From: an uncultured Candidatus Saccharibacteria bacterium
GTDB lineage: Bacteria; Patescibacteriota; Doudnabacteria; UBA920
NCBI GenBank assembly: GCA_964490395.1
Contig: CAZBAS010000001.1
Span: 19,815 to 83,814, forward strand
Direction of reading: 5' to 3'
DNA: 64,000 nucleotides
This document shows positions 5,795 to 23,762 of the stretch, in pieces. The notes beneath the pieces are model-generated. The model had not been told where the DNA came from. It saw nothing but the letters and a program-made list of their open reading frames with translations, and searched no databases. The position numbers and the translations under genes are program-made. Within the stretch, counting starts at the first letter, position 1. The number at the start of each line of letters is the position of its first letter.

Positions 5795-5798
5795 CCAC

Positions 5799-6761: not shown

Positions 6762-6827
6762 AAAAATGTGATATTATTATTTCATAAAATATTTTTTGTC
6801 AGTTAAGAAATAAAAAGTAAACGTGTT

Positions 6828-7955
6828 ATGGCAAACCGACTAGCCTTCTACTTGAAAAAGAAGTTTAAAAATACAACCAGCAAAGCTCTTGTCGCCACAC
6901 TAGTGCTCAGCACAATTCTTTTTGGTGCCAATACAGCCAATGCAGCTCAAATTACTTCATTCTCAGATACGCTCACAAGGCTCAAAGCAAGCACGGCAGC
7001 AGACCACACCATATTCTTGGTCAGTCCTAGTGGTATTGCAGCAGGCCAAAGCATGACACTTACTTTTGGAGCAGCCTTTACTACAAGCTCAATAGTTCTT
7101 GCAGATATCGACTTTGCTACGGGAAACAGTGGTACTTGTACGAGTGCCACCTATACTGAGCAAACCCTAGCAGCTTCCCCTTCTGGTGCTACTTGGGGTG
7201 TTACCTTTTCAAGCTCAGTGTTAACCCTCACCTCAGGAACAGGCACCTCAACGGCTGGTAACTGCATGCGCTTCAGAATAGGGACAAACGCTGTAACTGG
7301 CAGCTCTGGTACCCATCAAATCACAAATGGTACAGCTGGCGCCACAACCGCAACGGTAGTAGCGAACATAAACTCAAGCACCGATACGGGTACACTGTTT
7401 ATTCCAATCATCACCAACGACCAAGTAACTATTAGCGCTACGGTTGACCCGACTATTTCTTTTAGCATAAACAACACCTCTGTTAGTTTCGGTTCTCTTT
7501 CTTCATCTACAGGCCGCTGGGCTACTACCGGTGGTGGCGCAAACGCCTCAGCTGCAACAGACCCTACCGCGGCCAACACTGCTCATACCTTAACTATAGG
7601 AACAAACGCCACCAGTGGATATACAGTTACCTACAACGGAGCCTTGCTTACAAGCGGTGCAAATACTATAGCAGCGGCTACAATCACTGGGGATAGCGAC
7701 GGAACACAAAACTCAAACCAATTTGGGCTCTGCGGTAAGGGCACCTCCGGTAGTCCAACAGTTGCCTCTGGCTATGTATGCAGTACCAACAGTGACTACA
7801 ACTTTGTCGCAAACACAACTACCACCCTTGCCAGCGCAACGGCCCCAGCCAGCAGCGACGTAGTAAGCGTAGCGTATTTGGCCAACATCGCGAGCTCGAA
7901 GCAAGCTGGTACATATACCACCACCCTGACCTACGTCGCCACCGGTAATTTCTAA
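6828..7955 (+). CDS. Secreted Thr/Ser-rich beta-sandwich protein with a WxL-like / SCPU-like C-terminal domain.
   Basis: Signal peptide. C-terminal ~170 aa has the pattern VTISATVDPTISFSI..SVSFGSL...HTLTIGTNATSGYTVTY....AGTYTTTLTYVATGNF*. Paralogous to 9062..10156. Confidence 0.5.
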   Translation: MANRLAFYLKKKFKNTTSKALVATLVLSTILFGANTANAAQITSFSDTLTRLKASTAADHTIFLVSPSGIAAGQSMTLTFGAAFTTSSIVLADIDFATGNSGTCTSATYTEQTLAASPSGATWGVTFSSSVLTLTSGTGTSTAGNCMRFRIGTNAVTGSSGTHQITNGTAGATTATVVANINSSTDTGTLFIPIITNDQVTISATVDPTISFSINNTSVSFGSLSSSTGRWATTGGGANASAATDPTAANTAHTLTIGTNATSGYTVTYNGALLTSGANTIAAATITGDSDGTQNSNQFGLCGKGTSGSPTVASGYVCSTNSDYNFVANTTTTLASATAPASSDVVSVAYLANIASSKQAGTYTTTLTYVATGNF

Positions 7956-7968
7956 ACGTTTTACCACC

Positions 7969-8997
7969 TTGTCTAGCATTCGCTTCATATATAAGCTTTT
8001 TACTATCAGCACTCTGTTGCTGATAGTTTTTATTACCTACCCGCAGCACGCCAGGGCAACCACCATTTCACCAGTAAAACTCGAGCTAGCGGCAAACCCT
8101 GGAGAGACAATTCAAGGGTCAATCAAGGTAATAAATGAAACCCAAAGCTCCGAGGTACTCTACACTGCAACATTAAACTTTGAGCCAAAGGGTGATGAAA
8201 GTGGTGAACCAAATTTCGTACCAACCAAAGACGGCCTAGCGGCTTGGGTAAAAACTGATTATTCCATCACCCTGGGACAAAAAGAGCAAAAAAACCTGCC
8301 TTTTATCATCCAAATTCCCATGGGAACTGAACCGGGGGGATATTTTGGGGCCATTTTTACTTCTACAACACCGCCAAAAGAAAATGGTAGCGGTGGGGTA
8401 ATGCTCACAGAACGGGTCGGATCCCTTGTGTTATTGCGTGTAAACGGAGCACTCGCCGATTCCGGAGATATATTAGAATTCGGTACAAAAGATAAAAAGT
8501 TTTGGCATACCACCCTGCCCATTACTTTCTACTACCGATTTCAAAATAGCGGCCTAGATCGCGTTAGACCGCTCGGCGATATTCTCATAAAAAATTGGGT
8601 TGGACGTACCTCAAAAATAGTCCCCGCCAATCCAGAGGGCGGAAACGTGCTACCTAAAAGTATACGCAGGTTTGAATCGAAATGGATTAACCTATGGGGC
8701 AAGGCAAACAAAGAGGATATTGCCCAATTCCCAACCCCGCCAGAACAGGGCTTCTGGAAAAAAGTGTCGTACGAAGCAAAATATTTTGCCTGGGGTCGCT
8801 ACAAAATTCAGCTCAACCTTGCATATGGTTTCACGGAATTCCACTCAACCAGCGCCACCACAACAATTTTTGTCTTCCCGTGGCACCTCACACTCGTAAG
8901 TACACTTGCCGCAATTACATTATTCTTCATACTACGCTTCGCAATACGTAGATACAATCGCTGGATAATAAAAAAGGCAACCAAGAAAACAAAGTAA
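7969..8997 (+). CDS. DUF916/DUF3324-like (CscA-like) cell-surface protein with a C-terminal TM anchor.
   Basis: Signal peptide, ~300-aa extracellular domain (PVKLELAANPGETIQGSIKV...EPGGYFGAIFTSTTPP...), and C-terminal TM plus basic tail (ITLFFILRFAIRRYNRWIIKK). Paralogous to 10161..11123 and 11120..12097. Confidence 0.5.
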   Translation: MSSIRFIYKLFTISTLLLIVFITYPQHARATTISPVKLELAANPGETIQGSIKVINETQSSEVLYTATLNFEPKGDESGEPNFVPTKDGLAAWVKTDYSITLGQKEQKNLPFIIQIPMGTEPGGYFGAIFTSTTPPKENGSGGVMLTERVGSLVLLRVNGALADSGDILEFGTKDKKFWHTTLPITFYYRFQNSGLDRVRPLGDILIKNWVGRTSKIVPANPEGGNVLPKSIRRFESKWINLWGKANKEDIAQFPTPPEQGFWKKVSYEAKYFAWGRYKIQLNLAYGFTEFHSTSATTTIFVFPWHLTLVSTLAAITLFFILRFAIRRYNRWIIKKATKKTK

Positions 8998-9007
8998 CTA
9001 TATAAAT

Positions 9008-9038
9008 AACACCCTTGTCTGAGCTGGGGTGTTTTTTA
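9008..9038 (+). terminator. Rho-independent terminator.
   Basis: Hairpin aacaccc-ttgtctgagctg-gggtgtt followed by a T run. Confidence 0.55.
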
Positions 9039-9061
9039 TATATCCGTGATAAAATGATTAC

Positions 9062-10156
9062 ATGGAACTCGCAAAAAAAATCTTGCTGCTATGCTCTCTT
9101 ATAACGCTTATTTTATACCCCTTTGGCCTGCACGCAGAGACGTTATCAAGCACAAATTATACCGTAGAGAACCCCAGCGTGGATTCAGGCGGTGAAAATA
9201 GCAATTCAACAAATTATAATGAGCGAGAATCCATCGGGGGAAGCAACGACAGCGCTGCGAGTTCAACAAACTATCGAGCATTCCCCGGATTCGTCCAACA
9301 TGCCTACCCAGGCATTCCCGGGCAACCAACACTCGTGAATACTGGTGGGGTACTGTACAACGCCCTAGATTTTATTATTGCTACTGCAGGCAACCAAACT
9401 GACACTACATACGCCATTGCCATATCGAGCGACAACTTTACCACAACCAACTTCATTCAAGCAGACGACACCGTAGGCAGCAGCGCTGTATGGCAATCCT
9501 ATACATCATGGGGCTCAGGCACAGGCCAACGAGTTACAGGGCTCAGCGCGAACACCACATATAAAATTAAAGTCAAAGCGCGCTATGGCTTTGATACCGA
9601 AACTGCTTATTCTATTACCGCCAGCGCTACTACAGGCGGGCCAACCCTCACAGTATCGTTTGCGGGCGTAAACTCAGGCACTACCATATCTGGAGCGACC
9701 ACTACCATTACGAGCGCAAGTAATACTATAAGCTATGGCTCACTAACCCCGAACGTAACAGCGGTAGCAGCTCAAACCATAACGGTAAGTACAAATGCAA
9801 CAGGCGGCTATACTACAACGCTGCAGCAAGACGGCGATCTACGCAACAATGGTGGAGATTCCATAAGTCCCGTATCGGGCAGCAACGCCTCACCCGCAGC
9901 ATGGCCCACAGGCATCACCACTGGGTTTTTTGGATATCACACTACTGACGCCACCCTCTGTACAGGGACCGCGGGAAGATTCACTTCAAATAACACGTAT
10001 GCTGCGGCCACAACCACCCCTTCAGAAATTGCCTGTTCTACCACAACGGTTACAAACGAACAAACGTCATTAGTATATAAAGTGGAAATTGGAACTGGAC
10101 AAGACGCAGGAACATATCAAAACATAGTTACCTACATAACCACTGCGCAATTTTAA
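9062..10156 (+). CDS. Secreted Thr/Ser-rich beta-sandwich protein, paralogue of 6828..7955 (WxL-like / SCPU-like C-terminus).
   Basis: Signal peptide. The C-terminal pattern TLTVSFAGV...ISYGSL...TITVSTNATGGYTTTL....AGTYQNIVTYITTAQF* parallels that of 6828..7955. Confidence 0.5.
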   Translation: MELAKKILLLCSLITLILYPFGLHAETLSSTNYTVENPSVDSGGENSNSTNYNERESIGGSNDSAASSTNYRAFPGFVQHAYPGIPGQPTLVNTGGVLYNALDFIIATAGNQTDTTYAIAISSDNFTTTNFIQADDTVGSSAVWQSYTSWGSGTGQRVTGLSANTTYKIKVKARYGFDTETAYSITASATTGGPTLTVSFAGVNSGTTISGATTTITSASNTISYGSLTPNVTAVAAQTITVSTNATGGYTTTLQQDGDLRNNGGDSISPVSGSNASPAAWPTGITTGFFGYHTTDATLCTGTAGRFTSNNTYAAATTTPSEIACSTTTVTNEQTSLVYKVEIGTGQDAGTYQNIVTYITTAQF

Positions 10157-10160
10157 ACTC

Positions 10161-11123
10161 ATGCATTACTCTTGGCGGGCCCTTATTGTATGGATACTTA
10201 TTATGGCTAGTTTTTTACTGGCCCCTGTTGGATACGCCCAAACAAATGAAGTGGCGCCAGAACTTGAAGTGCAAGGCGTGCGCATAACCCCTTTTATATT
10301 TGAACAATCCGTGCAAAAAGGAGAATCATTCACAGGAGACATTACTCTTACGAACACTACGGCAGCTCCGGTCACGCTTTCATTAGCCATTCGCGACTTC
10401 ATCCCCGCTGGCCGGCACGGCGAAGTCCGATTCCTACCAGCCAACCAAGAAACAGACTCTCATTTTTCCTTATCAAATTGGGTAGAAATACAGAAGCAGC
10501 CAGATTACACGCTTGACCCCGGACAAAGCACGCGTACTACATTTCGCATACATGTCCCAACTGATGCAGATGACGGCACTCACTACGGGGGCATACTCTT
10601 CTCTTTTAGCGAGGGAAAAGCAGAGAACGGCACAACGGTCATTCAAAGCATTGGCGCTATTCTCATTGCAAAAATTGGATATGCCAACGGTAGCGGTACA
10701 GTTGAAACTTTTACCACCCCGCAACACATATACGCCAGCAGCACTGTTCCATTTGTGGCCACTTTTCGTAATACCGGAAATGTGCATTTTAGTCCTAAAG
10801 GTAAAATAGAAATCAAAAATATCTTTGGCAAAGTCGTCGGCCTTGCTTATATAAACGAAAATGCGCAAATTAGCCTTCCTGACACAGTAAGACAATTTGA
10901 AAGTGTTTATAAAGGGAAATTTATGGTGGGAAAATATACTGCCACACTTACCCTTGTTTTCGGAAATCCAAAACTGGAAGCCCAAAAAACGATAGGGTTT
11001 TGGGTGCTGCCATGGAAATCACTTATAAAATTTGGATTATTGAGCATACTTGTATTAGCCCTGCTCATATTCGCAATAATCCGCTATAATACATGGGTTA
11101 TTAAACACGCCCCCCGATCATGA
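10161..11123 (+). CDS. DUF916-like (CscA-like) cell-surface protein with a C-terminal TM anchor (paralogue).
   Basis: Shares VRITPFIFEQSVQKGESFTGDITLTN and DGTHYGGILFSF with the corresponding PVKLELAANPGE... and EPGGYFGAIF segments of 7969..8997. C-terminal TM LSILVLALLIFAIIRY. Confidence 0.5.
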   Translation: MHYSWRALIVWILIMASFLLAPVGYAQTNEVAPELEVQGVRITPFIFEQSVQKGESFTGDITLTNTTAAPVTLSLAIRDFIPAGRHGEVRFLPANQETDSHFSLSNWVEIQKQPDYTLDPGQSTRTTFRIHVPTDADDGTHYGGILFSFSEGKAENGTTVIQSIGAILIAKIGYANGSGTVETFTTPQHIYASSTVPFVATFRNTGNVHFSPKGKIEIKNIFGKVVGLAYINENAQISLPDTVRQFESVYKGKFMVGKYTATLTLVFGNPKLEAQKTIGFWVLPWKSLIKFGLLSILVLALLIFAIIRYNTWVIKHAPRS

Positions 11124-12097
11124 ACCCAGTCTTGCGTTCAGTACTTGTAGTCAGCTTTATTTTTGCCATCATTGCTGGGACACTACCCCGCACTGCCAAC
11201 GCGCTTACTGCCTCCCCTATACGTATAGAGCTAAACTCAGATCCTGGTAAAACAATAACTTCGCAGTTTAAGCTTTACAACGACGGCAAAACAAGCGAGA
11301 CCTACTACGTAATTTTCGAAAACTTTGAAGCCAAAGGAGAAGACGGCAGCCCAACTCTAGTTGCCGGCACAGACGGCCTTGCCCGATGGATGTCCACAAC
11401 GGAGTCTGTCACTATAAACCCAAAAGAGTCAAAAACACTACCCCTCACTGTTACAATACCCAAAGATGCCGAACCCGGCGGGTATTTTGCTGCCATTCTA
11501 GCCTCTACCATTCCACCAACACCTGAAAGCGACCAAAACGTATTACTTGAAGCACAGGTGGGAACCCTTGTTTTATTACAGGTAAACGGAGATTTTAAAC
11601 AAGGAGTAGACATACTAGAGTTTGGAACTACAAGCAAAAAGCACTGGTTTACAGCGCTTCCTATAGAGCTCTATTACCGCTTTCAGAACGCAGGAGACAG
11701 CTGGGTTAAACCCATAGGAGACATTATTGCCAGGAATTGGTTTGGTAAAACAACCAAAGTTATCCCAACAAATGAGGATCGGGGCAACATCCTACCCCGC
11801 AGTATTAGAAAATTTACCACGACATGGTACGGAAAAGATAAAAGCGGCCAAATGCCCAAAGGCTTTTGGAAAAAAGTAGGCTACGAGTGGAACAATTTCG
11901 CTTTTGGGAAATATTCCATGTCCTTAAACTTGGCCTATGGCAACAGTAGCGACCAAGCAGCCAGAGCAACAACAAGTGTGTGGATATTTCCTTGGCATTT
12001 ATTGCTGGCCGGGCTTGTAGCAATTGTGCTAGTATTCGGAATTTCCATCTCGCTCGCCGTTGTTCTGGTCATGAAACTACTAAAACGAAGAAAATAA
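11120..12097 (+). CDS. DUF916-like (CscA-like) cell-surface protein with a C-terminal TM anchor (paralogue).
   Basis: Segments SPIRIELNSDPGKTITSQFKLYN and EPGGYFAAILASTIPP are nearly identical to those of 7969..8997. The start overlaps the previous gene by 4 nt. C-terminal TM plus KRRK tail. Confidence 0.5.
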   Translation: MNPVLRSVLVVSFIFAIIAGTLPRTANALTASPIRIELNSDPGKTITSQFKLYNDGKTSETYYVIFENFEAKGEDGSPTLVAGTDGLARWMSTTESVTINPKESKTLPLTVTIPKDAEPGGYFAAILASTIPPTPESDQNVLLEAQVGTLVLLQVNGDFKQGVDILEFGTTSKKHWFTALPIELYYRFQNAGDSWVKPIGDIIARNWFGKTTKVIPTNEDRGNILPRSIRKFTTTWYGKDKSGQMPKGFWKKVGYEWNNFAFGKYSMSLNLAYGNSSDQAARATTSVWIFPWHLLLAGLVAIVLVFGISISLAVVLVMKLLKRRK

Positions 12098-12114
12098 TCT
12101 CTCACATACATCTA

Positions 12115-12145
12115 AAGCGCCCTCTGTGGGGCGCTTTTGTTTTAA
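12115..12145 (+). terminator. Rho-independent terminator.
   Basis: Hairpin agcgccc-tctgt-ggggcgct followed by tttgtttt. Confidence 0.6.
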
Positions 12146-12483: not shown

Positions 12484-12512
12484 TTGACCTAATGATAAAA
12501 CTGTGATAAAAT
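12484..12512 (+). promoter_or_regulatory. Sigma70-like promoter (TTGACC, 17 nt spacer, TAAAAT) in the long AT-rich leader upstream of the HTH gene and the giant protein gene.
   Basis: ttgacc-taatgataaaactgtga-taaaat read directly. It lies ~210 nt upstream of the 12721 start codon. Confidence 0.4.
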
Positions 12513-12720
12513 ATACATAAGTTTTGTTAAGTTGTGTGTAGATAAAAAACCTAACACCACCTACCAAAAGCTACTTCATTCCGCATAGCGGAAAGAAACC
12601 AAAAGAAAAAATAATTCAATAAGTGGTATTAGTTATTCGTTTTCAGTTTAGTTTTTTGAATGCCTATTTGGTGTTCGTCTAGCAGAAACGAGCAAATATA
12701 ACCACAAGGAAACAAACACC

Positions 12721-12924
12721 ATGCAAAATATGCAGTTACCAGAGCTGCTAACCTTGCGAGAAGCCTGCGAGCTCCTTCACGTTCACCCAAACACGCTCAG
12801 AAATTGGGAAAAAGAGGGAAGACTGTCCGCAGTTCGCATAGGCAGCCGCCGAGACCGCCGCTTCACCAAAGAAGCGCTGGCCCAGCTCTACACCTCTCTT
12901 GCAACCCAATCAGCCGCTTTGTAA
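12721..12924 (+). CDS. Small helix-turn-helix DNA-binding protein (excisionase/MerR-type HTH_17 family).
   Basis: The motif LLTLREACELLHVHPNTLRNWEKEGRLSAVRIGSRRDRRF is the typical excisionase-family HTH. The gene is 67 aa and lies immediately upstream of the giant ORF. Confidence 0.6.
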   Translation: MQNMQLPELLTLREACELLHVHPNTLRNWEKEGRLSAVRIGSRRDRRFTKEALAQLYTSLATQSAAL

Positions 12925-13043
12925 CCATAGTGGCTTTTATTGCAGTCCAAAAACAACAAGAAACAAAAACATTCAATAACGCCATGGCTCACGTATAGCA
13001 CGAAAGCCATACATAAAGAACTACTGGCGAACACCCCCCACAC

Positions 13044-16000
13044 GTGGCAAAACACAATCTGAAAACTATTCTAAATTTCAGAAAGCGTACAAAGCTGTAT
13101 GCTCTTTTGGCATTGGCGGGTGTAGCACTCAATTGGATGCCGTTGTTTGCCCCACCGGCCCAAGCCACGGTTCCAAAATACATAAACTTCCAGGGAAAGC
13201 TCACAAAAGTCTCTGATGGTACTAACGTCACGAACGGAAGCTATGCTTTTGAATTCAAACTATACGATGCGAGCACCAGTGGCACCCTACTCTGGACAGA
13301 AACATATGACCAACCAAGTGGTGCGTGTACTAAACTAGCAGTAACAAGTGGGGTATTCAACGCCAAACTTGGTTCTTGTGCGTCCCTGGCGAGCATCGAC
13401 TTTACCGGCGGATCAATATATCTCAGTGTAAACTTTGCTCCCACAGGTGTTAGCTATGACGGTGAAATGTCGCCACGCAAGCAACTCGTAGCCTCTCCCT
13501 TTGCATTAGTCGCCAACAGCGTATCCGGTGATGGACCTATTAATACAGTTAATTCTTCTGCTACGGCCTTAACCGTAGCAAAATCCGGAAGCAACTATGG
13601 CCTCCAAGTTGATACCAGCACTGCCTCTGCTGCGACAGGTCTTAAAATAACCTCAGCAGCTGCAGCGAGCGGTATTGCCTTGTCGGCTATTTCTTCTGGA
13701 ACTAATGAAAGTATTACTCTCGACGCCAAAGGAACAGGCTCAGTCAGCCTCGGCGCAACCTCTACCGGTGACATCCTCCTTGGTGGAGGCTCGGGTTCCA
13801 CTGGTTGTACAGTTACCAACTCAACCGGTGCATTTGCTTGTACGGCTGGCGGCTCGTTCACAACCCTTGGTCTGAGCGGGGCAATTACCGGAGCGACCGG
13901 GATTACATCTTCCGGCACCATCAACTTCTCTACTCTTTCCGCCTCAAGTGCCGTCTATACCGACGGCTCAAAAAACCTCACCTCAACAGCACCAACAAGC
14001 GGCGCCATTGGCTACTGGTCTAGAAGTGGCACCACACTTCAACCTACGACCAGCAACGATGCAATCTCAATAACGGGCAACTCTGGAGATATTGCCACAC
14101 TTACTTCCTCTGCAACTGAAGCCTCTAACAAAACTTTAAATATTTCTCAGACTGGTGCAACAAGTGGTACTGACTACGGAGCATATATTTCAAACACAGG
14201 AGCAGCAACAAACAATGTTGGTTTATATACCACCACCTCTGGGGCAACCAATAACTATGCTGCGATTTTTGATAGTGGAACAGTAGGGTTTGGTACAACT
14301 GCCCCCACAGCAGGCAAATTGCACATTCTAGCAGCAAACACTACACAACCCGCAATTGCAGTACAGCAGCCAAGCGCGAACAACAACTACAGCATATTAT
14401 TAGCATCTACAAACAACTTTGGCTCCAACAACCTTGATTTAAACTATCAAGATGGTAATGGTATTCGGATGATTAGCAACCTAAATATGAATATCAGCGC
14501 TGGAAGCGCGCTTAATTTAACATCCGGCACCGCATCTACGTACGCCCTACCTTCAAACACCGCAAGTGCTTTACGCTTTACAGATGGGACAAACTCGTAC
14601 CACACTATCGATACGAGAACTACAAACTCCACATCCTCCGCGCACACTTTCGCCACAACTGCACCCACCATTGCCTCATCTAGTACTTCCGCGTATTTAC
14701 TTACGACTTTTACCCCAGGCACCCAAACATACACCGGGACCACCAACACCACCAGCACTGGTGCTACTGCCCCACTGAGCGTACTCTTCAACCAGCCAAC
14801 CATAGCAGGCAACGGCACCAGAACTATTACTGAAACTTCTAACACCGTTATTAATGGTCCAACCATTGCATCTTCTTCTTCAGGTACAGAAACAATTACT
14901 AGCGCCTATGGACTTAATATCCTTTCCGGTTCTGCACTAAACGGCACTGGTGGTGCGGTTACTAACGGTGTTGGTCTTTCAGTAAACGCCCCCACTGGCG
15001 CAACCAATAACTACGCAGCCTTGTTTAACGGCGGCAATGTAGGCATTGGAAACACCGCCCCGACTGAGACGCTCGACGTAACGGGCAACGCAAAAATACG
15101 CGGCACTTTAAAGATCCGAAGCGCTAGCAATACTGGAAACCTAAGCATTCTTGATGCTGGAGGTGGTGTAGCCACAATAGACAACACTGGTAATAGTATT
15201 CTCGCTATAAATGGTGGCTCTATCAGCACAAACTTTGTGACTGGCAACGTTGGTATTGGTATTTCCAACGTCACCACACCAAATGCTGCATTACAAATTG
15301 CCACAAACGGCGCAGCTTCAACACCAGGCGTACGACTTGATGGTACCTGGTACGCTGCAGGAACAAGCACTACTAATAAACCACAATTATTAGTCGAACC
15401 AACTGGCACAACCTCTACTACCTGGTCCGGCGCAGGCACTGGCATTGGCGCCAATGCCGCAAGTGGTTTTACCGGCAACTTACTTGACCTGCAAACAAAC
15501 AATGCAAGCAAGTTTTCAGTAGCAAGCGACGGTACTGTAATTACAGCCAGTACTATTTTTGGCGGCAACGACATTTATGCTGGATCAAGCAGCTACTTAG
15601 CTTTTAGCAGCCGAAGTAAAATTAGTTCCCCTGCCGACAGCAACTTACTACTCACCAACGCTGCTGCAAACGCATTTAACTTATTGCAGTTCGGCGGCAC
15701 TTCTTCTTCTTTCCCTGCCCTAAAACGCAGCACAACCATCCTACAAGCGCGACTTGCAGATGATAGTGGGTACACATCATTTGACGCAGGAAATTTCCTC
15801 CTCAGCGGCACAAACATAAACACCGCGGGTACACTCACTAATGTTGCGTATAAAAATGCAGCCAATACTTTTACAGCTAATAATATCTTCCAGCCAACTG
15901 TCACTACCGGCACTGGGGCCACTGCTGGTGTACAAATTGCAGCAAACAGTTTAACCACCGGTAATGGACTAGATGTTTCTTCTACCTCACTCACAACAGG

Positions 16001-19000
16001 AAACCTAGCAGCGCTCTCTTCTTCATCCACCGCTGGTGGAGCGTCTGGTACTTCTACCCTCCTAAACTTGTCTCGCACTGGTGTTAATAGTAATACCGCA
16101 CACACTGCGTATGGACTTTATTCTACCGTCACAAACACAAACGTGACCAGCGGCACAAACATTGCTGCTTATCTTTCTGCTAGTGGTGCGACTACTGCAA
16201 ATTACGGCCTAATTGTTGCTGCTGGAAATGTAGGGATAGGAACAACAACACCTAAAGGGCTCCTTGAAATTGACGGATACGCGGGACAAACAATACTAAG
16301 AGACCTAGGAGCCGCAGCAGACGAAGGTGGGTGGTCATTTACCACTTCCGCAACCACCCTCACTCTTGGATCAACAAACGACGCCAACAATGCTGGCGCA
16401 AGCCTTCTTGTCGCAAAACGTGGCACCGGCACAACTATAACAAGCTTATACTCCCCTTCGACTTCTACTAATTTTGGGCTGGGCGACTCAACACCGGCCT
16501 CCCTACTTACTGTAGGCAACGGCGACCTTTTCCAAGTAAACTCATCGGGTGCAATTGCTGCTGCCACTGGAATTACCTCTTCTGGAACAATTAACTTCTC
16601 TACTCTTTCCGCTTCTAGCGCGGTCTATACCGACGGCTCAAAAAACTTAACCTCTACCGCACCAACAAGTGGCGCCATTGGGTATTGGTCTAGGAGCGGC
16701 ACCACTTTGCAACCAGCAACAAGCAATGACGTTGTAGCAATTTCTAGTAACGCTGTTGCTGCGGGCGGAGTTCTCGATATTACATCTTCTGGCACAGTTA
16801 CGAGCGGCAATAACGCAATTAGAATCACTGCAAACTCAGTAACCACTGGGGTAGGCGTTTCCTTGTCTACAACTGGAGTAACTACTGGAACAGCATTAAA
16901 CATTACCGGCCCTAGCACAACAGGTGTAACCACTGGCTTGTCATCTGGCTTCATCAAGGCAACAAGCGACGTTGGATCAGGTGGAACCGGCGGGGTGCTG
17001 GCGTACTTAGCACCAGACTACAGCTCCGCTTCTGCCGCAACTAGTTATGGCCTTGAAATAAATGGAACGGATAGCACAACGGTAAGTAATAACAATTACA
17101 ACCTTTACAGTAATTTGGCTATGAGCGGCGATGCTACGAGTAAACTCGGGGTAGCTATCTACGGCAATGTCAGCTCGAGTAGTACACTAGCTGATACTAC
17201 ATATGGCGGCCTATTTGGCACCTCTGTAAGCGGGGCAATATCCACCGGAAGCAGAAACAACTACGGAATATACGCGCAACCAAACGTCAGCAGCGCTAAC
17301 ACAGGTGGTATTACAAATGTGTACGGTGCCTTCCTAGCACCCGCTTCATCGAACTCTACTACTGGCTCTACAGTAAACGTGTACGGCAGCTATACTACAA
17401 ACCAAGCACTCTTAACAACAGGTGGCACCATAAACAGCTATGGCAACTATATTGCCAATGGGTCGGTAAGCACTACTGGAACTTCGACTCAATACGGTTT
17501 ATATGTGGAATCTCAAACTGGCGCAGATAATAACTACACCGCGGTGTTTGCGGGTGGAAACGTAGGAATAGGAACAACAACGCCTACGGCCTTTCTTCAT
17601 GTCGGCTCTAATGGTGCAGCATCTAACCCTGGACTTAAGCTGAGCGGCTCATGGTTTACCGGTGGCGACTCTACCACGACTAAACCACAGGCTTTAATAG
17701 AAGCGAGTGGGGCAACTTCTTCAGGGTGGTCCACAAGCGGCACTGGCCTTGGTATAAACGCACCGAGTGGTTTTACGGGAAGAATGATAGATGTAAAACT
17801 AAATGGAACCAGCTCCTTTGCCCTTAATGAGGCTGGAGGCATTTCAATCTTGGGCCAAGGAGTTACTAATATTGGGGCGGCCCAAGCCTACTGGTATCAA
17901 CCATCAGGAGCTACTGTATCAATTGGAAACAACGGCGACACTGGGGCAAGTAATTTATTACTACGGGCTGGAGCAAGCGGGTCTTCTGGTGGAAACATCA
18001 CATTTAATATAAACAACTCTAATACCGGAATATGGAACTCCGCAGGTTTTGGTATTGGTACCGGCACACCAATAGACCCACTCTCTATTAGCACCGCAAT
18101 AAACGCATCTGCGACACACGCACTGTTTAATCTTTCAAACACCGCTCTTTCCAGTGGTTCGGCTAATGGTACGTACATAGGCGCAAACCCTGCGGCTTTT
18201 ACTGGCAACTTCTTCGACTTTCAAGTTGCGAGTTCTAGTGTAGCTAAACTCACCAGCGCTGGTGCATTAACCGTTTCATCTTGTACTGGTTGTGGTAGTG
18301 GAGCCACTACATTCGACGCAATTGGAGATCCCGCTGGTAATGGCGCTATAAACATGGGTACCACTGTTCAAACCCTAGACTGGGGAGCCACCACCACAAC
18401 CGACAACTTAAGCATTACTTCCTCTGGTACTGGCATAACCTCTGGTTCTGTATTAAAAGTCACCTCGGCCACTACTGGCGCAGTTTCAAATGGACTTATT
18501 CAATTCACCGCAAGTGGTGCATATACATCAACTGGCGGGTTATTGAGTGTAACCGGCAACTCTACCGCAACTGGTACACTCGCAAAGTTTTCTGCTACCG
18601 GTTTAACTACTGGTACAGGGCTAACAATTGCCGGTGGTACGGCAATGACAACTGGCACAGTACTAGGCGTGAGCAGTGCAACCTACAACCACGCCAACGG
18701 TGAAACTGGAAATATGGCTTCACTAATCTTCTCAGACGCAACCACAACCGCCGGCGCCGTAACCAGCACCACCAACGGATTAAACATCGCCTCAACCATA
18801 GCAGCAACAACCAGCACCAGTGGTACAAAAACTGTGAACGCAATTAACATTGCCTCCCCTACTCTCACTTCTTGTACTGGTGGTGCTAGTTGTGTCTGGA
18901 ACGGTGTACAAATTACTGCTCCAGCGACTACTGCTAGTTTTACTTCTACTGCACTCAAAGTAGTTGCGAACTCTTTAACCACCGACACAGTGGCTAGTAT

Positions 19001-22000
19001 TTCTGCAACAGGTCAAACAAGTGGTATCGGGCTCTCCATAACTGGTGGTGGCGCCAACCTTACTGCTTCCGGTAAACTCATAGACCTGCAAATGGGTGCA
19101 GCCACCGTGGGTGCAGGATTAAATATTCTTAGCTCGGGTGTATATACTGGCGCGGGCTTAGTACAGCTCACTGCTAACTCAGCCACCAGTGGTGTAATCG
19201 ATAGTATTTCTGGAACAGGATTAACTTCTGGATCAGCAGTTAGAGTAACTGGGTCTGGTGCAACCATGACTACTGGTGGTGAACTCATTGACCTTGTCCT
19301 TGGCGCCAATACTGTAGGGGCGGGAATGACCATCACCAGCACGGGTGCATATACAGGTACCGGTGCAGCTGATGGACTAATTAACATAGTCGCCAACTCA
19401 CTTTCGAGCGGATTTGGTTCCCAATATTCCTTCACTGGCATGACCAGTGGTACCGGCATAAAAATAACCGGTGGCGGCGCAAACTTAACTGCTTCTGGTA
19501 AACTGATAGACCTTCAAATGGGCGCAGCTACTGTTGGTGCGGGTTTAAACATTGCCAGTTCTGGTGTATATACGGGCGCTGGCCTCGTACAACTAACTGC
19601 GAACAGTGCAACCTCTGGTGTAATAGATAGAATCTCCGGAACAGGATTAACTTCTGGATCAGCAGTTAGAGTAACTGGGTCTGGCGCAACCATGACCACT
19701 GGCGGAGAATTGATCGATTTAGTGCTTGGTGCCAATACTGTTGGTGCAGGCCTTACGGTTACCAGCACTGGTACGTATACGGGTAGCGGCGCTGCTGATG
19801 GATTAATTAACGTCGTAGCAAACTCGCTCACCACAGGACTCGGTTCACAATACTCATTCACTGGTATGACAACGGGCACCGGAATAAAGATGACTGGCGG
19901 TACCGCAATGACCACCGGTGGGCTAATACAAATCGGAAACGGTACATATAACCATGTCAACGGTGAAACGGGTAGTATTGCTAAAATTCTTGTTACGGAC
20001 GCCACCACAACCGCCGGTGCGGTTACGAGCACCACTAACGGATTAAACATTGCCTCAACCATAGCAGCAACAACCAGCACAAGTGGAACGAAAACAATAA
20101 ATGCTATCAACATAGCCTCCCCTACTCTTACCTCTTGTGCGGGTGGTGCAAGTTGTGTGTGGAATGGTATGCAAATTACCGCTCCGGCAACCACTGCAAG
20201 TTTTACTTCTACCGCGCTTAAGGTGGTGGCGGATTCGCTGACCACCGATACCGGCGTGAGCATTTCTGCTGCCGCATTAACTACGGGCAACGCCTTAAGC
20301 ATTACCGCTGGTGGCGCAACCGCACTAACTAGTGGTGCAGGACTCAAAGTAACCGGACCAAGCGGGGCTGCTGCAATAGCGAACGGCTTAGTACAAATTA
20401 CTGCAGCTGGTGCGTATACAGGCACAGGCGGACTGTTAAATGTAACCTCTGCGGCCTCTACAGCAGGAACACTTGTTAACTTTACCAACAACACAGCCAG
20501 CTTTACCGGTACGGCTGTTAACATCTCGACCAGCGGCATTACAAGCGGCTCAGCAATGCAAATTACAGGAGGAAGCTCTATGGCTGCGGGTGGACAATTA
20601 CTTGGTCTAAGCATTGGCACGGCAGGTGCAGGTACTGCCCTTAATATTGTTGCCAATGGTGGAACATATACCGGAACCGGGCTTCTAGCATTTAATAGTA
20701 ACAGCTTAACATCCGGAACCATGATGTCGGTAGCGGCAAATGGCTCCGGCCAAACCAGCGCAAAATATATCGACATTGCCCAGACAGGCGTTACCACAGG
20801 GTTTACAGGAAACCTAATAAACCTTAGCTCTACCTCTACAACTGGCGCGGCAACGTTTATAAACCTAACAGCAAACTCTTCTACGGTTGGGGTTGGCCAG
20901 GCTATTTCTATGACCGGCCTAACAACCGGCTCTGCCCTAACCATTACCGGACCAAGCTCGACCGGAGTTACGGGGAGCGGCATCTTAAAAGTTACTGCTG
21001 ACGTAGGGTCTGGTGGCACCCAAGGACAATTGGTCAGTTTTTCTCCGGACTACAGCGCGGGCACCGCGAGTACGGGCTACGGTCAAACCATACTCGGAAC
21101 CGACTCAACATCTACGGCAAACTCAGACAACAACCTATATTCCAGCCTAGCTTTAACAGGAAATGCCGCAAAAACAGGATACGCATTTTATGGCACAGTG
21201 ACCTCTAACTCAACCACTGCTGACACAACCTATGGCGCAAACTTTGACACCAGCATAACCGGAGCAATTTCCACTGGAACCCGCAACACCATTGGTGTCA
21301 GAAGCGCCCCCGCCACTTCAGGCGCAAACACAGGTGGAACCACACAACTGTTTGGTGGAAACTTTGCCCCAAGCAGTACTGGTTCTACCACAGGCGCTAC
21401 AGTAAATGTATTCGGCGCCTATGTAAGCAATACCGCCACCCTTACCACTGCCGGAACCATTAACAGTTACGGGCTGTATGTAGACTCTGGAACCACAAGC
21501 ACCACCGGAACCTCTACTGCATATGGCGCCTATATTCTAGCCCCGACAGGCGCAGACACAAACACGGGACTACTCATTAACACTGCAAACGCAGCAAGCA
21601 TTGGTCAAGTAATAAAGGCATCGACAAGCCAGACTGCTGACCTACTCCAATTCCAAAACTCTTCAGGCACTGTGTTAATGTCCCCAGACTTTGCCAACAG
21701 CAGTTCTTTGTGGAACTTCTACAACACAAGCGGTACAAAAATGGCAGTCATGGGATACGATAACGCCAACAATGCAGCCTTCTTCCAGTCCATAGGCATT
21801 GATGGAGTACTCCGTGCCCGCGACGCTATTAATGGAAGAGATTACGCCAAAATTAATCTGAATTACACTTCGGGTTATATATCTCTTAGTACCAACACCG
21901 GTGCGGATGCAGTAGAACGCATGCGCATAGATGCAACTGGTGCGGTTGGTATTGGCGCAAGCATGACCGCACCAAAACAACCCAACGGATTACAAATGGC

Positions 22001-23726
22001 ATACAGCACCACCGCCAATCAAAAATGGGCATTTATTAGTGGTGAAAGCGGCGCGTATTTAAACGGAAACGCCTACTACGACGGCACCTGGAGATATCTC
22101 GACGGCGCCAACGGCGCATCTATGGTTAACGCCAATAGCGTGCTTAATGCGATCCTGTTCTACACAACCGCAACAACCGGCAGCACCGGAGGAGCCATTA
22201 GCAACTGGACAGAAAAAATGCGTATTGAAGGTGGTGGAAACGTGGACATCGGCACCAGCACATCAAAAGGACTTTTGACTGTTGCCCAAACCGACGCCGC
22301 GAACGACGAAGGTATTTACTTAGATACCGAGGAATCAACTACCACGCAAACGGTGTTTGCTATAGAGAGTGACGCAACCTCTGCTGATACAGTGAAATTT
22401 AAAGTTACGGCGGACGGCGAAACGAGCGCACTTCTTAATGGCCAAGGCGGAAACAACTTGTGCCAAAACGGAGTATTCGCTGGTGGTGTTGGAAAAATTG
22501 GTGATTGTACTTCGGACCGCAGATTAAAAACCAATATTGTTGACCTTGATGGTGGGGCGCTAGAAAAAATCATGCAGGTAAAACCTCGTGTATTCGACTG
22601 GATTAACGGCGCCGGACAACACCAGTCAGGGTTTATAGCCCAAGAAGTACAGGCTGTCATACCAGAGCTGTACAGGGGCGAAACTGCCGATGGCTACTTA
22701 CGGTTCTCCAAAGACCTGCTAGTCCCCTATCTCACCAAAGCGCTACAAGAGTTAAACCAGGTTTCCATTAAGACAAATGCCGACGGAACGATAAACCGAG
22801 ACTCGTTCGTGTTTGAAATGCCCGAAAACCAAGCCAATACGGCACAAATTACAGGGACAGGCACACAGGCCGTGGCCAGTACCGGATTTGTCATAAATCA
22901 AAAAGGAAGTGGCAATATTCTTCAACTCCAAAAAGATGGCATGGACAACTTCTTGGTAGCAAACGACGGTACAGTACACATTCACACAGACCTCGCAAGC
23001 GGTACTGTACTTGAAATAACCAATGCAAACACTTCCCTCTTTACTATTAACACCCAAGGCAATGCGGCACTCGCAGGTACATTGGTTGTAAAGAAAGATG
23101 TTGCAGTACTTGGAAGAATCCTCGGATCTACAGCCATAGTAGCCAAAAATACCAGCAACGAGACTATTCACCAAGGCGACCTACTTATGCTTACTGGTGC
23201 AACCGCAGAGCCAATGCTTGGAGACCAGCCAACCCTTACCGTTGCAAAAGCAGTAGCGGGTACCAACACTACCATTGTTGGCATAGCAGACCGCAACCTT
23301 TCTGACTTCAACATAAACCCTGACTCCCCTGTTGCCGATGACCCAACTACCATAAAACCTGGAGAATATGTAAGCATTGTTATTACGGGCACATACAAAA
23401 AAGTCTTTGTGAACGGCAGCGTTTCACTGGGAGACAAGCTAACCGCATCCATAATCCCAGGAAAAGCAGAAAAGCTCACAGCCAACACACCAGGGCAAGT
23501 GTTTGGTATTTCCCTCGACAACACCCCGGACACAACTGGTTCCATACGCGTTATGCTCTTATCCACTTTTCAACAAGTAACCCAAATAGTTCAGCAAGTA
23601 CCAGTTAGCCAAGCCGCCCCACCAGCACCAAACCAGAACAATAACAACACTCCCCCCCCTGATAACGGTGGAACAACAAGCGATCCTGTGACCCCTCCCG
23701 CAGAAACCCCATCACCTACAGAATAG
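13044..23726 (+). CDS. Giant (3560 aa) secreted Thr/Gly/Ser/Ala-rich repetitive surface protein. It has a phage-tail-fibre-like beta-helical repeat region and a peptidase S74 / intramolecular chaperone autoprocessing domain near the C-terminus.
   Basis: Putative GTG start with a classic signal peptide (KRTKLYALLALAGVALNWMPLFAPPAQA). Globular N-terminal domain. Recurring GNVGIGTTTP / SGTVGFGTTAP motifs. Long internal repeats. The segment CTSDRRLKTNIVDL...PRVFDWIN.....GFIAQEVQAVIPELY....YLRFSKDLLVPYLTKALQELNQ matches the S74 chaperone domain consensus. Pro-rich C-terminal tail. Confidence 0.7.
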   Translation: MAKHNLKTILNFRKRTKLYALLALAGVALNWMPLFAPPAQATVPKYINFQGKLTKVSDGTNVTNGSYAFEFKLYDASTSGTLLWTETYDQPSGACTKLAVTSGVFNAKLGSCASLASIDFTGGSIYLSVNFAPTGVSYDGEMSPRKQLVASPFALVANSVSGDGPINTVNSSATALTVAKSGSNYGLQVDTSTASAATGLKITSAAAASGIALSAISSGTNESITLDAKGTGSVSLGATSTGDILLGGGSGSTGCTVTNSTGAFACTAGGSFTTLGLSGAITGATGITSSGTINFSTLSASSAVYTDGSKNLTSTAPTSGAIGYWSRSGTTLQPTTSNDAISITGNSGDIATLTSSATEASNKTLNISQTGATSGTDYGAYISNTGAATNNVGLYTTTSGATNNYAAIFDSGTVGFGTTAPTAGKLHILAANTTQPAIAVQQPSANNNYSILLASTNNFGSNNLDLNYQDGNGIRMISNLNMNISAGSALNLTSGTASTYALPSNTASALRFTDGTNSYHTIDTRTTNSTSSAHTFATTAPTIASSSTSAYLLTTFTPGTQTYTGTTNTTSTGATAPLSVLFNQPTIAGNGTRTITETSNTVINGPTIASSSSGTETITSAYGLNILSGSALNGTGGAVTNGVGLSVNAPTGATNNYAALFNGGNVGIGNTAPTETLDVTGNAKIRGTLKIRSASNTGNLSILDAGGGVATIDNTGNSILAINGGSISTNFVTGNVGIGISNVTTPNAALQIATNGAASTPGVRLDGTWYAAGTSTTNKPQLLVEPTGTTSTTWSGAGTGIGANAASGFTGNLLDLQTNNASKFSVASDGTVITASTIFGGNDIYAGSSSYLAFSSRSKISSPADSNLLLTNAAANAFNLLQFGGTSSSFPALKRSTTILQARLADDSGYTSFDAGNFLLSGTNINTAGTLTNVAYKNAANTFTANNIFQPTVTTGTGATAGVQIAANSLTTGNGLDVSSTSLTTGNLAALSSSSTAGGASGTSTLLNLSRTGVNSNTAHTAYGLYSTVTNTNVTSGTNIAAYLSASGATTANYGLIVAAGNVGIGTTTPKGLLEIDGYAGQTILRDLGAAADEGGWSFTTSATTLTLGSTNDANNAGASLLVAKRGTGTTITSLYSPSTSTNFGLGDSTPASLLTVGNGDLFQVNSSGAIAAATGITSSGTINFSTLSASSAVYTDGSKNLTSTAPTSGAIGYWSRSGTTLQPATSNDVVAISSNAVAAGGVLDITSSGTVTSGNNAIRITANSVTTGVGVSLSTTGVTTGTALNITGPSTTGVTTGLSSGFIKATSDVGSGGTGGVLAYLAPDYSSASAATSYGLEINGTDSTTVSNNNYNLYSNLAMSGDATSKLGVAIYGNVSSSSTLADTTYGGLFGTSVSGAISTGSRNNYGIYAQPNVSSANTGGITNVYGAFLAPASSNSTTGSTVNVYGSYTTNQALLTTGGTINSYGNYIANGSVSTTGTSTQYGLYVESQTGADNNYTAVFAGGNVGIGTTTPTAFLHVGSNGAASNPGLKLSGSWFTGGDSTTTKPQALIEASGATSSGWSTSGTGLGINAPSGFTGRMIDVKLNGTSSFALNEAGGISILGQGVTNIGAAQAYWYQPSGATVSIGNNGDTGASNLLLRAGASGSSGGNITFNINNSNTGIWNSAGFGIGTGTPIDPLSISTAINASATHALFNLSNTALSSGSANGTYIGANPAAFTGNFFDFQVASSSVAKLTSAGALTVSSCTGCGSGATTFDAIGDPAGNGAINMGTTVQTLDWGATTTTDNLSITSSGTGITSGSVLKVTSATTGAVSNGLIQFTASGAYTSTGGLLSVTGNSTATGTLAKFSATGLTTGTGLTIAGGTAMTTGTVLGVSSATYNHANGETGNMASLIFSDATTTAGAVTSTTNGLNIASTIAATTSTSGTKTVNAINIASPTLTSCTGGASCVWNGVQITAPATTASFTSTALKVVANSLTTDTVASISATGQTSGIGLSITGGGANLTASGKLIDLQMGAATVGAGLNILSSGVYTGAGLVQLTANSATSGVIDSISGTGLTSGSAVRVTGSGATMTTGGELIDLVLGANTVGAGMTITSTGAYTGTGAADGLINIVANSLSSGFGSQYSFTGMTSGTGIKITGGGANLTASGKLIDLQMGAATVGAGLNIASSGVYTGAGLVQLTANSATSGVIDRISGTGLTSGSAVRVTGSGATMTTGGELIDLVLGANTVGAGLTVTSTGTYTGSGAADGLINVVANSLTTGLGSQYSFTGMTTGTGIKMTGGTAMTTGGLIQIGNGTYNHVNGETGSIAKILVTDATTTAGAVTSTTNGLNIASTIAATTSTSGTKTINAINIASPTLTSCAGGASCVWNGMQITAPATTASFTSTALKVVADSLTTDTGVSISAAALTTGNALSITAGGATALTSGAGLKVTGPSGAAAIANGLVQITAAGAYTGTGGLLNVTSAASTAGTLVNFTNNTASFTGTAVNISTSGITSGSAMQITGGSSMAAGGQLLGLSIGTAGAGTALNIVANGGTYTGTGLLAFNSNSLTSGTMMSVAANGSGQTSAKYIDIAQTGVTTGFTGNLINLSSTSTTGAATFINLTANSSTVGVGQAISMTGLTTGSALTITGPSSTGVTGSGILKVTADVGSGGTQGQLVSFSPDYSAGTASTGYGQTILGTDSTSTANSDNNLYSSLALTGNAAKTGYAFYGTVTSNSTTADTTYGANFDTSITGAISTGTRNTIGVRSAPATSGANTGGTTQLFGGNFAPSSTGSTTGATVNVFGAYVSNTATLTTAGTINSYGLYVDSGTTSTTGTSTAYGAYILAPTGADTNTGLLINTANAASIGQVIKASTSQTADLLQFQNSSGTVLMSPDFANSSSLWNFYNTSGTKMAVMGYDNANNAAFFQSIGIDGVLRARDAINGRDYAKINLNYTSGYISLSTNTGADAVERMRIDATGAVGIGASMTAPKQPNGLQMAYSTTANQKWAFISGESGAYLNGNAYYDGTWRYLDGANGASMVNANSVLNAILFYTTATTGSTGGAISNWTEKMRIEGGGNVDIGTSTSKGLLTVAQTDAANDEGIYLDTEESTTTQTVFAIESDATSADTVKFKVTADGETSALLNGQGGNNLCQNGVFAGGVGKIGDCTSDRRLKTNIVDLDGGALEKIMQVKPRVFDWINGAGQHQSGFIAQEVQAVIPELYRGETADGYLRFSKDLLVPYLTKALQELNQVSIKTNADGTINRDSFVFEMPENQANTAQITGTGTQAVASTGFVINQKGSGNILQLQKDGMDNFLVANDGTVHIHTDLASGTVLEITNANTSLFTINTQGNAALAGTLVVKKDVAVLGRILGSTAIVAKNTSNETIHQGDLLMLTGATAEPMLGDQPTLTVAKAVAGTNTTIVGIADRNLSDFNINPDSPVADDPTTIKPGEYVSIVITGTYKKVFVNGSVSLGDKLTASIIPGKAEKLTANTPGQVFGISLDNTPDTTGSIRVMLLSTFQQVTQIVQQVPVSQAAPPAPNQNNNNTPPPDNGGTTSDPVTPPAETPSPTE

Positions 23727-23735
23727 AGCACATAT

Positions 23736-23762
23736 AAAAAGCCCTTATTTAAGGGTTTTTTA
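23736..23762 (+). terminator. Rho-independent terminator of the giant gene.
   Basis: aaaaagccctt-attt-aagggtttttt. Confidence 0.65.

Follow-up and report, generated by a model that had tools for sequence, protein, structure and literature searches.

What does an uncultured, Saccharibacteria-like Patescibacterium make from a gene of 3560 codons that lies beside its dnaA, and what could the product do for the cell? The gene occupies 13044..23726 (+) of a 64,000-nucleotide (nt) stretch of contig CAZBAS010000001.1 (assembly GCA_964490395.1, positions 19,815 to 83,814 of the forward strand), which was analysed at its full length and is called the window here. It starts with GTG, and translation of the open reading frame (ORF) gives a protein of 3560 amino acids (aa), called the giant protein below. 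It contains 16% T, 14% G, 12% A and 12% S, and charged residues are sparse from aa ~200 to ~2800. We propose that this is a chromosomal gene of the Saccharibacteria-like cell and that it would encode a very long, Sec-exported surface fibre with the layout of a phage tail fibre; for the full mechanism set out below we estimate a probability of about 0.55. The proposal is carried by a phage-type knob and a Peptidase_S74 domain near the C-terminus, and by a putative signal peptide and a conserved domain at the N-terminus.

The two ends of the giant protein

Peptidase_S74 (PF13884) is the sole Pfam domain in the whole giant protein. It matches aa 3157-3209 with an E value of 7e-16 and a score of 58.6 bits against a cut-off of 22. 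The motif S3157-D-R-R-L-K3162 is intact. It is in register with SDYRLK and SDERLK of the database proteins P0005-7, and it also aligns with SDERLK and SDRRIK of the solved tail fibres (PDB entries 8jov and 6f45). In the S74 domain of the endosialidase endoNF, Ser911 and Lys916 (S-x-x-x-x-K) form the catalytic pair of self-cleavage. By analogy, Ser3157 is predicted to be the autocleavage nucleophile and Lys3162 the general base. The region around S74 also matches phage proteins directly. A tblastn search with aa 2940-3560 against 50,697 phage genomes returns 336 records at 27-45% identity, and the phage genes matched are annotated as tail fibre, PblB-type receptor-binding protein, endo-N-acetylneuraminidase and hyaluronidase. 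All of these matches lie inside aa ~2948-3243, that is, in the knob and S74, and almost none reaches further. In PHROGs, phrog_7841 and phrog_33119 ('long tail fiber protein distal subunit') match the same region, while a search of the giant protein against NCBIfam gives no match.

At the opposite end, the basic stretch and the hydrophobic segment of the N-terminus are followed by PPAQA↓TVPKY. The AlphaFold2 (AF2) model has a helix at aa 6-35, and the whole region is conserved in the orthologue P0130. The putative signal peptide was called from these sequence features by inspection, and we infer that the giant protein is exported through it. A type IV pilin reading of the N-terminus was considered and rejected, as no class III signal peptide (G↓F/M-x-x-x-E) stands before the hydrophobic helix. 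The N-domain that follows is modelled by AF2 as a beta-sandwich spanning aa 47-132, with a mean predicted local distance difference test score (pLDDT) of 83. An alignment scan of one genome per species in 185,579 species finds 339 confirmed relatives of this domain, nearly all in Patescibacteria, and the nearest of them carry the Saccharibacteria label. The same scan finds 0 confirmed relatives in 2.9 million viral contigs. ORFs led by the N-domain range from ~500 to >3500 aa. Elsewhere the domain heads BclA_C, collagen triple-helix, Phage_depo_C, Pectinesterase and other modules, which suggests that it is a generic base of secreted filaments, several of them obligate trimers. Some Saccharibacteria have two different giant genes with this domain ~14-15 kb apart on one contig (L007/L038 on CAYYQK010000002.1 and L023/L045 on CAZLNP010000001.1). 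Two such genes in one genome suggest paralogous fibres per cell.

The position of the start codon decides whether the export signal is seen at all. The public protein P0129 is the same product from codon 32 on (100% identity over 3529 aa), and its gene call begins at an internal ATG (Met32), which leaves out window 13044-13136. The orthologue P0130 (3683 aa) keeps the 31 residues before this position and has Ile in place of Met32; therefore the longer GTG reading is correct. Since the P0129 start strips the basic and hydrophobic parts of the signal peptide, automated annotation would miss export.

A frame that stays open for 3560 codons at ~47% GC has a chance of roughly (61/64)^3560, so the ORF is not there by chance. 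The DNA repeats inside the gene are just 64-81% identical, which makes assembly collapse unlikely. The orthologues have 2411 aa (L003), 2890 aa (P0131), ~3250 aa (L008) and 3683 aa (P0130). L003, L008 and P0130 have the architecture of the giant protein from end to end, and P0131 has its C-terminal architecture in common. An independent sample is represented by the Logan contig SRR12487046 (5.8 kb), which contains the window's exact dnaA together with the 3' end of the giant gene and stops inside the gene. One could still suppose that the long ORF arose from mis-assembled repeats, or that it is a dead relic held open by its biased composition. In favour are the repeats in the gene, the database relatives, most of which are fragments at contig ends, and the L008 orthologue (9983-19712), whose frame a 100-N scaffold gap divides into 291 + 3010 open codons. 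We find this scarcely credible. Internal repeats so diverged are not collapse-prone, the open frame carries conserved, recognisable domains at both ends, three independent orthologues (2411, ~3250 and 3683 aa) have a like architecture, and the independent sample has the identical dnaA along with the 3' end of the gene. The predominance of contig-end fragments means that the family is under-counted. In public assemblies, giant orthologues are as a rule found in pieces (for example L008 9983-19712 and L001 2-1696). A previous, sequence-only reading of this DNA had taken 13044-23726 for one genuine gene of 3560 aa with a signal peptide and a ~150-aa globular N-terminal domain, and on these points it stands.

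Shaft and C-terminal cassette

Between its two ends the giant protein consists of a shaft in which segments have been duplicated and have diverged (Table 1). Residues 259-389 resemble aa 1148-1281 with 67% identity, aa 1259-1497 resemble aa 2606-2840 with 60% identity, aa 1822-2226 resemble aa 2240-2650 with 56% identity, and aa 1947-2140 resemble aa 2087-2282 with 81% identity. The module at aa 2651-2939 also occurs in P0001 and P0002. In the periodic block, autocorrelation reaches z = 13 at offset 142 and shows peaks near all multiples of 14. This pattern of ~14-residue units suggests a solenoid or a fibre shaft, not disorder; a ~14-aa period recalls the head repeats of YadA-type proteins. 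The shaft had previously been described as low-complexity, with a phage tail-fibre motif recurring throughout ~3000 aa, and neither description survives. The composition is biased, but SEG masks 723 of the 3560 residues, and windows of 100 aa have an entropy of 3.2-3.6 bits. The motif GNVGIGTT.P is found 6 times by regular expression (aa 412, 664, 734, 1061, 1505 and 2966), with ~2 further degenerate copies seen by eye in the translation.

The idea of phage tail-fibre-like repeats fares better in one part of the protein than in the others: the knob and S74 are phage-like, and the repeat block, most of the shaft and the N-domain are not. The ~870-aa repeat block has no match among phages. In the motif-bearing shaft, the phage match is one cyanophage protein over 78 aa only, with 60% identity between aa 1518-1595 (window 17595-17828) and CPKG_00048 of cyanophage KBS-S-2A, a hypothetical protein whose gene has the head-tail adaptor on one side and further structural genes on the other. 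The cyanophage-like module occurs twice in the giant protein, at aa 731-832 and 1502-1600; the same observation includes L082 4644-5486. Against PDB sequences the whole giant protein gives nothing at E <= 0.01, and a profile of the repeat unit gives only chance matches to antibody light chains. The gene was also considered as the target of a diversity-generating retroelement. This was rejected, as every repeat of at least 50 nt in which the gene takes part has both copies inside the gene, and no reverse transcriptase domain occurs among the scanned proteins of the window.

Compared with its orthologues, the giant protein is 74-88% identical at the N-terminus and ~65% identical over the last ~600 aa. 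The middle matches in isolated blocks, and some of these are shifted (in P0130, 92% identity over 369 aa at an offset of 314). As read from these alignments, a mosaic middle with conserved ends is the module-shuffling pattern of phage host-range proteins.

Opposite the repeat block, an antisense ORF of 501 aa lies at 19514-21019 (-). None of 200 whole-gene and 300 local codon shuffles reaches its stop-free run of 511 codons. The product would be 50% Val/Pro/Ala and nearly without Gly, Lys and Asp, and in relatives this antisense phase is open for as many as 389 codons. Because of this composition and the same-phase runs in relatives, the 501-aa ORF is most likely a compositional mirror and by-product of the repetitive sense frame. 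That agrees with the earlier dismissal of the antisense ORFs as spurious, yet a run beyond every shuffle is more than that dismissal allowed for.

The segment after S74 comprises domain A, domain B and a Pro/Thr/Asn-rich tail. An exhaustive HMMER search with aa 3236-3560 against 1.84 billion representatives yields 234 proteins at E <= 1e-3. Domain A is present in 65 collected match proteins and is never at the C-terminal end, in most cases (83 of 154 domain matches) domain B forms the extreme C-terminus of a mid-size protein, and the two are also found apart from each other. P0001 and P0003 have tails like that of the giant protein. A protein encoded outside the window, P0135 (1873 aa), has domains A and B at its C-terminus and an N-terminal HTH_17-like segment (E 7.5e-4); it could be a fusion of regulator and fibre genes or a read-through gene call.

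Most N-domain relatives are without S74. A D-x-A-E-x-[YFW] module is found in 21 ORFs, 400-470 aa from the C-terminus, a distance that matches the 404 aa between Ser3157 and the end of the giant protein. The carriers are L007, L014, L015, L019, L022, L025-L028, L033, L034, L043, L045, L047, L066, L069, L074, L078 and P0002-P0004. In domain B, IVAKN stands where the relatives have DVAENY. Both acidic residues are gone, and with Asp and Glu replaced domain B cannot act as a G2-type protease. A profile of the D-x-A-E-x-Y module (A5) aligns weakly with PDB entry 3gqh_A (E 0.15), the auto-chaperone part that phi29 gp12, the pre-neck appendage protein, releases; the alignment starts from its residue 1 at 'DFAEYF'. 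Below threshold, PF11962 (Peptidase_G2) matches 4 of 20 domain-B-type sequences with a best E of 0.002 and is the most-matched Pfam family among them; Phage_cement_2 matches 3 of the 20, also below threshold. The Peptidase_G2 Pfam model is reached by 0 of 19 longer D-x-A-E-x-Y members, the giant protein's own domain B has no Pfam match, and the domain-B profile gives nothing meaningful against PDB. We treat the G2-like relationship as a lead and not as established. The D-x-A-E-x-Y module may be a second, G2-like self-cleaving cassette interchangeable with S74. If it is a protease, the copy in the giant protein would be inactive and S74 would have taken over.

Genomic setting

The HTH (helix-turn-helix) gene directly in front of the giant gene ends 119 nt before its start, and an AT-rich spacer of ~580 nt (12138-12720) is located 5' of the HTH gene. 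From this order of spacer, HTH gene, 119 nt and giant gene, the leader is that of the HTH gene. Both elements had been noted before, as a ~600-nt promoter-bearing AT-rich leader and a small HTH gene; what changes is that the leader precedes the HTH gene and not the giant gene. The strong terminator claimed downstream comes down to a modest hairpin and T-run at 23736-23762. Promoter-like sites in the spacer are no more frequent than in shuffled sequence, and a search with Rfam gives nothing in the 64-kb window. A homologue of the HTH gene lies 52-370 nt upstream of an N-domain gene on the same strand in 25 loci (28 loci in total), and the closest relatives have a small HTH gene directly upstream. 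A single transcript probably covers both the HTH gene and the giant gene, and the HTH protein possibly regulates the latter.

Further upstream lies a cluster of genes for surface proteins. Synteny was counted in 65 informative loci, in which the sequence reaches 5 kb or more upstream. On the strand of the N-domain gene, upstream genes of DUF916-like type are present in 54 of the 65, homologues of g9062 in 30 and of g6828 in 23. Beside N-domain genes g9062 is strongly conserved, with 53-80% identity in 34 loci. The WxLIP_PGBD (peptidoglycan-binding) domain scores 34.4 bits in g10161 against a cut-off of 27.3 and is weak in g11120 (E 0.0034); g7969 is a paralogue by tblastn. The proteins g6828 and g9062 have alike tails, AGTYTTTLTYVATGNF and AGTYQNIVTYITTAQF, which by eye loosely resemble WxL-type C-terminal motifs. 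Pfam gives no WxL domain at E up to 1 in g5799, g6828 and g9062, and the inspected termini of the cluster proteins contain no LPXTG. Both g6828 and g9062 may belong to the core of the proposed surface complex.

On its other side the giant gene is followed by dnaA, dnaN and recF, and it ends 385 nt before this group; the stretch considered here is window 23727-25770. The minimum of the cumulative GC skew is at ~24-26 kb. With 385 nt to dnaA and this minimum, the giant gene abuts the likely replication origin. DnaA-box-like sequences, e.g. TAATCCACA, are present at ~23928. The giant gene (10.7 kb) and the upstream cluster are transcribed toward the likely origin and would hence run head-on to replication, an orientation unusual in so long a gene. 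In the three closest loci (L003, L008 and L012), dnaA is likewise 3' of the orthologue. Other genes of the window encode YidC, RuvB, PolA, UvrB, a Mur ligase, a type IV pilus ATPase and glycosidases. No gene for capsid, portal, terminase, tail tube, baseplate or integrase is found in the 64 kb.

Several other genes of the window deserve mention. The ATPase is of the type II/IV secretion kind (T2SSE/MshEN; 35113-36762), lies ~11 kb downstream of the giant gene and fits the type IV pili typical of Saccharibacteria. A secreted-type protein of 1546 aa is encoded at 52679-57319, with Big_7, a GH39-like region and a C-terminal F5/8 type C (galactose-binding-like) domain; its gene contains an internal 109-nt repeat pair (53811 and 55776), and it is possibly a surface glycosidase or lectin. 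The ORF at 48282-51113 (943 aa) has no Pfam match. At 42878-43891, RhuM-family and Fic/DOC domains (toxin/virulence-associated) occur in one gene amid housekeeping genes.

Table 1. Features of the giant protein and of the sequence around its gene; positions refer to the window.
Feature	Residues (aa)	Position (strand)	Basis or remark
Signal peptide or N-terminal anchor, Sec-type	1-41	13044..13166 (+)	basic n-region, hydrophobic aa 18-36, AQA↓T
Conserved N-domain, immunoglobulin (Ig)/fn3-like beta-sandwich	42-150	13167..13493 (+)	proposed basal attachment module
Mosaic Thr/Gly/Ser/Ala-rich shaft	151-1780	13494..18383 (+)	GNVGIGTT.P-type modules, diverged segmental duplications
Periodic block	1781-2650	18384..20993 (+)	solenoid-like '.TG.T.G...h.h' units, nested ~14/70/142-aa periods
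Second copy of aa 1259-1497 module	2651-2939	20994..21860 (+)	60% identity
Distal knob, phage-tail-fibre type	2940-3156	21861..22511 (+)	tblastn, PHROGs
Peptidase_S74 intramolecular chaperone domain	3157-3243	22512..22772 (+)	Pfam PF13884
Post-S74 domain A	3255-3350	22806..23093 (+)	'INQKGSGNILQLQ..G.D.F...N.G'
Post-S74 domain B, beta-rich	3345-3510	23076..23573 (+)	homologous to D-x-A-E-x-Y module
C-terminal Pro/Thr/Asn-rich tail	3511-3560	23574..23723 (+)	SEG-masked aa 3509-3547
Upstream surface-protein cluster, co-conserved		4271..12097 (+)	Pfam, signal-peptide/transmembrane (TM) pattern, synteny
g4271		in 4271..12097 (+)	CHB_HEX_C and dockerin domains
g5799		in 4271..12097 (+)	signal peptide, C-terminal TM segment
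g6828		6828-7955 (+)	signal peptide, no Pfam match, tail type GTY..(L/V)TY(V/I)(A/T)T(G/A)(N/Q)F
g9062		9062-10156 (+)	signal peptide, no Pfam match, tail type as in g6828
g7969, g10161, g11120		in 4271..12097 (+)	DUF916/WxLIP-like paralogues, signal peptide and C-terminal TM anchor
Terminator-like hairpin ending upstream cluster		12114..12137 (+)	10-bp stem, 6 GC pairs, then T-run
Best sigma-70-like promoter match		12484..12512 (+)	TTGACC-17-TAAAAT and extended TG; consensus match only
HTH_17/MerR-type DNA-binding protein	67 in total	12721..12924 (+)	Pfam HTH_17, E 1.8e-11
Bidirectional hairpin with A/T runs, modest terminator		23736..23762 (.)	AAAAAGCCCTTA-TT-TAAGGGTTTTTT

Proposed function and comparison with known systems

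In the mechanism that we propose, the HTH gene and the giant gene would be co-transcribed from the AT-rich spacer, and the precursor would leave the cell through its N-terminal signal peptide. As in endosialidases and tail fibres, S74 would join three chains and nucleate the folding of the shaft from C to N, and it would cut itself at Ser3157 with Lys3162 as base. A 404-aa cassette (S74, domain A, domain B and the Pro-rich tail) would come free through this cut, and the phage-type knob (aa ~2940-3156) would then lie exposed at the far end of the fibre. The Ig-like N-domain would hold the fibre at the envelope, probably on the DUF916/WxLIP-like proteins, as conserved synteny suggests, and the tip would bind a surface structure of another cell. 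The mosaic shaft and swappable C-terminal cassettes would vary length and specificity, as phage host-range determinants do. By analogy, the giant protein is probably trimeric. The T4 long tail fibre has ~2900 residues per chain and is ~145 nm long; in proportion, a folded shaft of ~3100 residues would measure, as a rough estimate, ~100-150 nm, comparable to the width of the cell.

Several points weigh against this proposal. In canonical S74 proteins the chaperone is the final domain. Here S74 is internal, with 317 aa after it and 404 aa from Ser3157 to the end, and it is likewise non-terminal in L003, L008, P0001, P0130 and P0131; this makes cleavage, and what becomes of the cassette, uncertain predictions. 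The AF2 monomer model of aa 3130-3560, made from 8 sequences, has a pLDDT of 37 and gives no structural support to a trimer or a beta-helix. The idea of a giant trimeric fibre or adhesin akin to phage fibres, already put forward in the sequence-only reading, is thus strengthened by S74 and the knob, with the trimer or beta-helix fold itself a prediction. Sequence and profile searches find no relative of the shaft in PDB, and Pfam, PHROGs and NCBIfam reveal no domain, whether for binding or for catalysis, from which a ligand could be deduced. The giant gene is linked to the DUF916 cluster through synteny alone. Adhesion to host cells is a hypothesis for the role of the fibre, though a plausible one. 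A search of the openly accessible literature found no paper on the giant-fibre family or its cluster.

The phage-type domains could also mean that the gene is the remnant of a prophage or tailocin, a tail-fibre gene left in the chromosome with no cellular role. S74 and the knob are typical of phage tail fibres, the small HTH_17 gene upstream is excisionase-like, and a 78-aa module is held in common with a gene of a cyanophage structural region. However, the 64 kb contain no phage structural or integration genes and have a housekeeping context, and the order of surface cluster, HTH gene and giant gene (followed by dnaA in the closest relatives) is kept across many species. The giant protein has a signal peptide, and to our knowledge virion proteins lack one. 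It is far longer, with 3560 aa, than the phage fibres it matches, and its N-domain has no relative in the viral contigs scanned. Because of the genomic context and the missing viral N-domain, we reject this explanation as very improbable.

Two further explanations accept a cellular surface protein and differ in its use. The fibres could form a hair-like nap or an S-layer-like coat for protection, spacing and hydration, as BclA does on Bacillus spores. The N-domain is indeed found in proteins containing BclA_C and collagen, the Thr/Ser-rich shaft could be heavily glycosylated, and the gene is linked to peptidoglycan-binding, membrane-anchored proteins. A purely structural role is nevertheless unlikely in our view, as a phage-type knob, a fast-evolving mosaic shaft and swappable cassettes are more like receptor-binding proteins, and some genomes have two different copies ~14-15 kb apart. 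A secreted or surface depolymerase, in which an enzymatic beta-helix degrades host capsule or a cell-wall polymer, would be in keeping with S74, which often matures tailspike depolymerases, and with the phage matches annotated as endo-N-acetylneuraminidase and hyaluronidase. Some N-domain proteins also carry Phage_depo_C or Pectinesterase, and adjoining genes encode glycan-related domains. Yet searches of Pfam, NCBIfam, PHROGs and PDB sequences find no catalytic domain in the 3560 aa, and the phage matches are limited to the knob and S74 and do not extend to the enzymatic bodies of tailspikes, which leaves the depolymerase decidedly improbable.

If a fibre of the proposed kind is made, it would bear on how ultrasmall epibiotic Patescibacteria recognize and hold their hosts, which is largely unexplained. 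For host attachment in these bacteria, only type IV pili and a few 'adhesins' have been named (PMC10633639, PMC12206443, PMC11665869). The present locus is a concrete and widely conserved candidate, and a variable middle with swappable ends is what one would expect of a specificity determinant. We suggest, tentatively and as a possibility less likely than not, that a phage receptor-binding apparatus has become part of the patescibacterial envelope, with giant self-chaperoned fibres, anchoring through the lineage-specific Ig-like N-domain and DUF916-like proteins, exchangeable autocleaving cassettes (S74 or gp12/G2-like) and recombining shafts, and that it determines host recognition and host range. 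If this is true, an epibiotic cell would find its host as a phage does. For the S74 chaperone itself the setting is out of the ordinary: the protein is cellular, the domain is internal, and a 317-aa cassette comes after it. Two unrelated autocleaving modules seem to stand in for one another within the family, a point of interest for the folding of very long fibres. Saccharibacteria are now genetically manipulable, so the fibre hypothesis is directly testable.

The plan of an S74 fibre is itself known; what would be new here is that such a fibre is cellular, giant and exported by Sec, that its S74 is internal and that its base domain is specific to the lineage. Phage fibres chosen for comparison were the K1F/endoNF endosialidase, the T5 L-shaped fibre, the S16 gp37-type fibre and pneumococcal PblB-type fibres. 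Like these, the giant protein has S74 with S-D-x-x-x-K and a knob of the same family directly before it, GNVGIG-type modules, a long repetitive shaft and a mosaic evolution with conserved ends. Unlike them, it is encoded by a chromosomal gene and has a signal peptide, and a non-viral Ig-like domain replaces the domain for attachment to the baseplate. It is 3-10 times longer, most of its shaft has no phage homologue, and its S74 is internal, with 317 aa behind it that are almost without phage match. A second parallel is phi29 gp12 (Peptidase_G2). Most relatives of the giant protein have the D-x-A-E-x-[YFW] module at the place of S74, and domain B is homologous to the beta-rich part of this module. 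The similarity to gp12 is weak, however (E 0.15 to 3gqh, sub-threshold in Pfam), and domain B of the giant protein is without the Asp/Glu pair.

For the anchoring side, the closest comparison is with the WxL/DUF916 (Csc-type) clusters of Firmicutes, such as csc of Lactobacillus plantarum and the WxL loci of Enterococcus faecium. Those clusters also combine several secreted proteins of DUF916/WxLIP_PGBD type, a C-terminal TM anchor and a position by surface genes. The present cluster differs in that no WxL or LPXTG is detected, in that an HTH gene and a giant fibre gene are coupled to it, and in that it belongs to a Patescibacterium; the likeness is confined to the DUF916 component. The hairs of the exosporium formed by BclA and the trimeric autotransporters are functional analogues. 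Unlike them, the giant protein is without collagen G-x-y repeats, BclA_C and a beta-barrel anchor, and its folding presumably depends on S74. What it would have in common with both is a long, repetitive, trimeric surface filament that rises from a basal domain and ends in a distal head.

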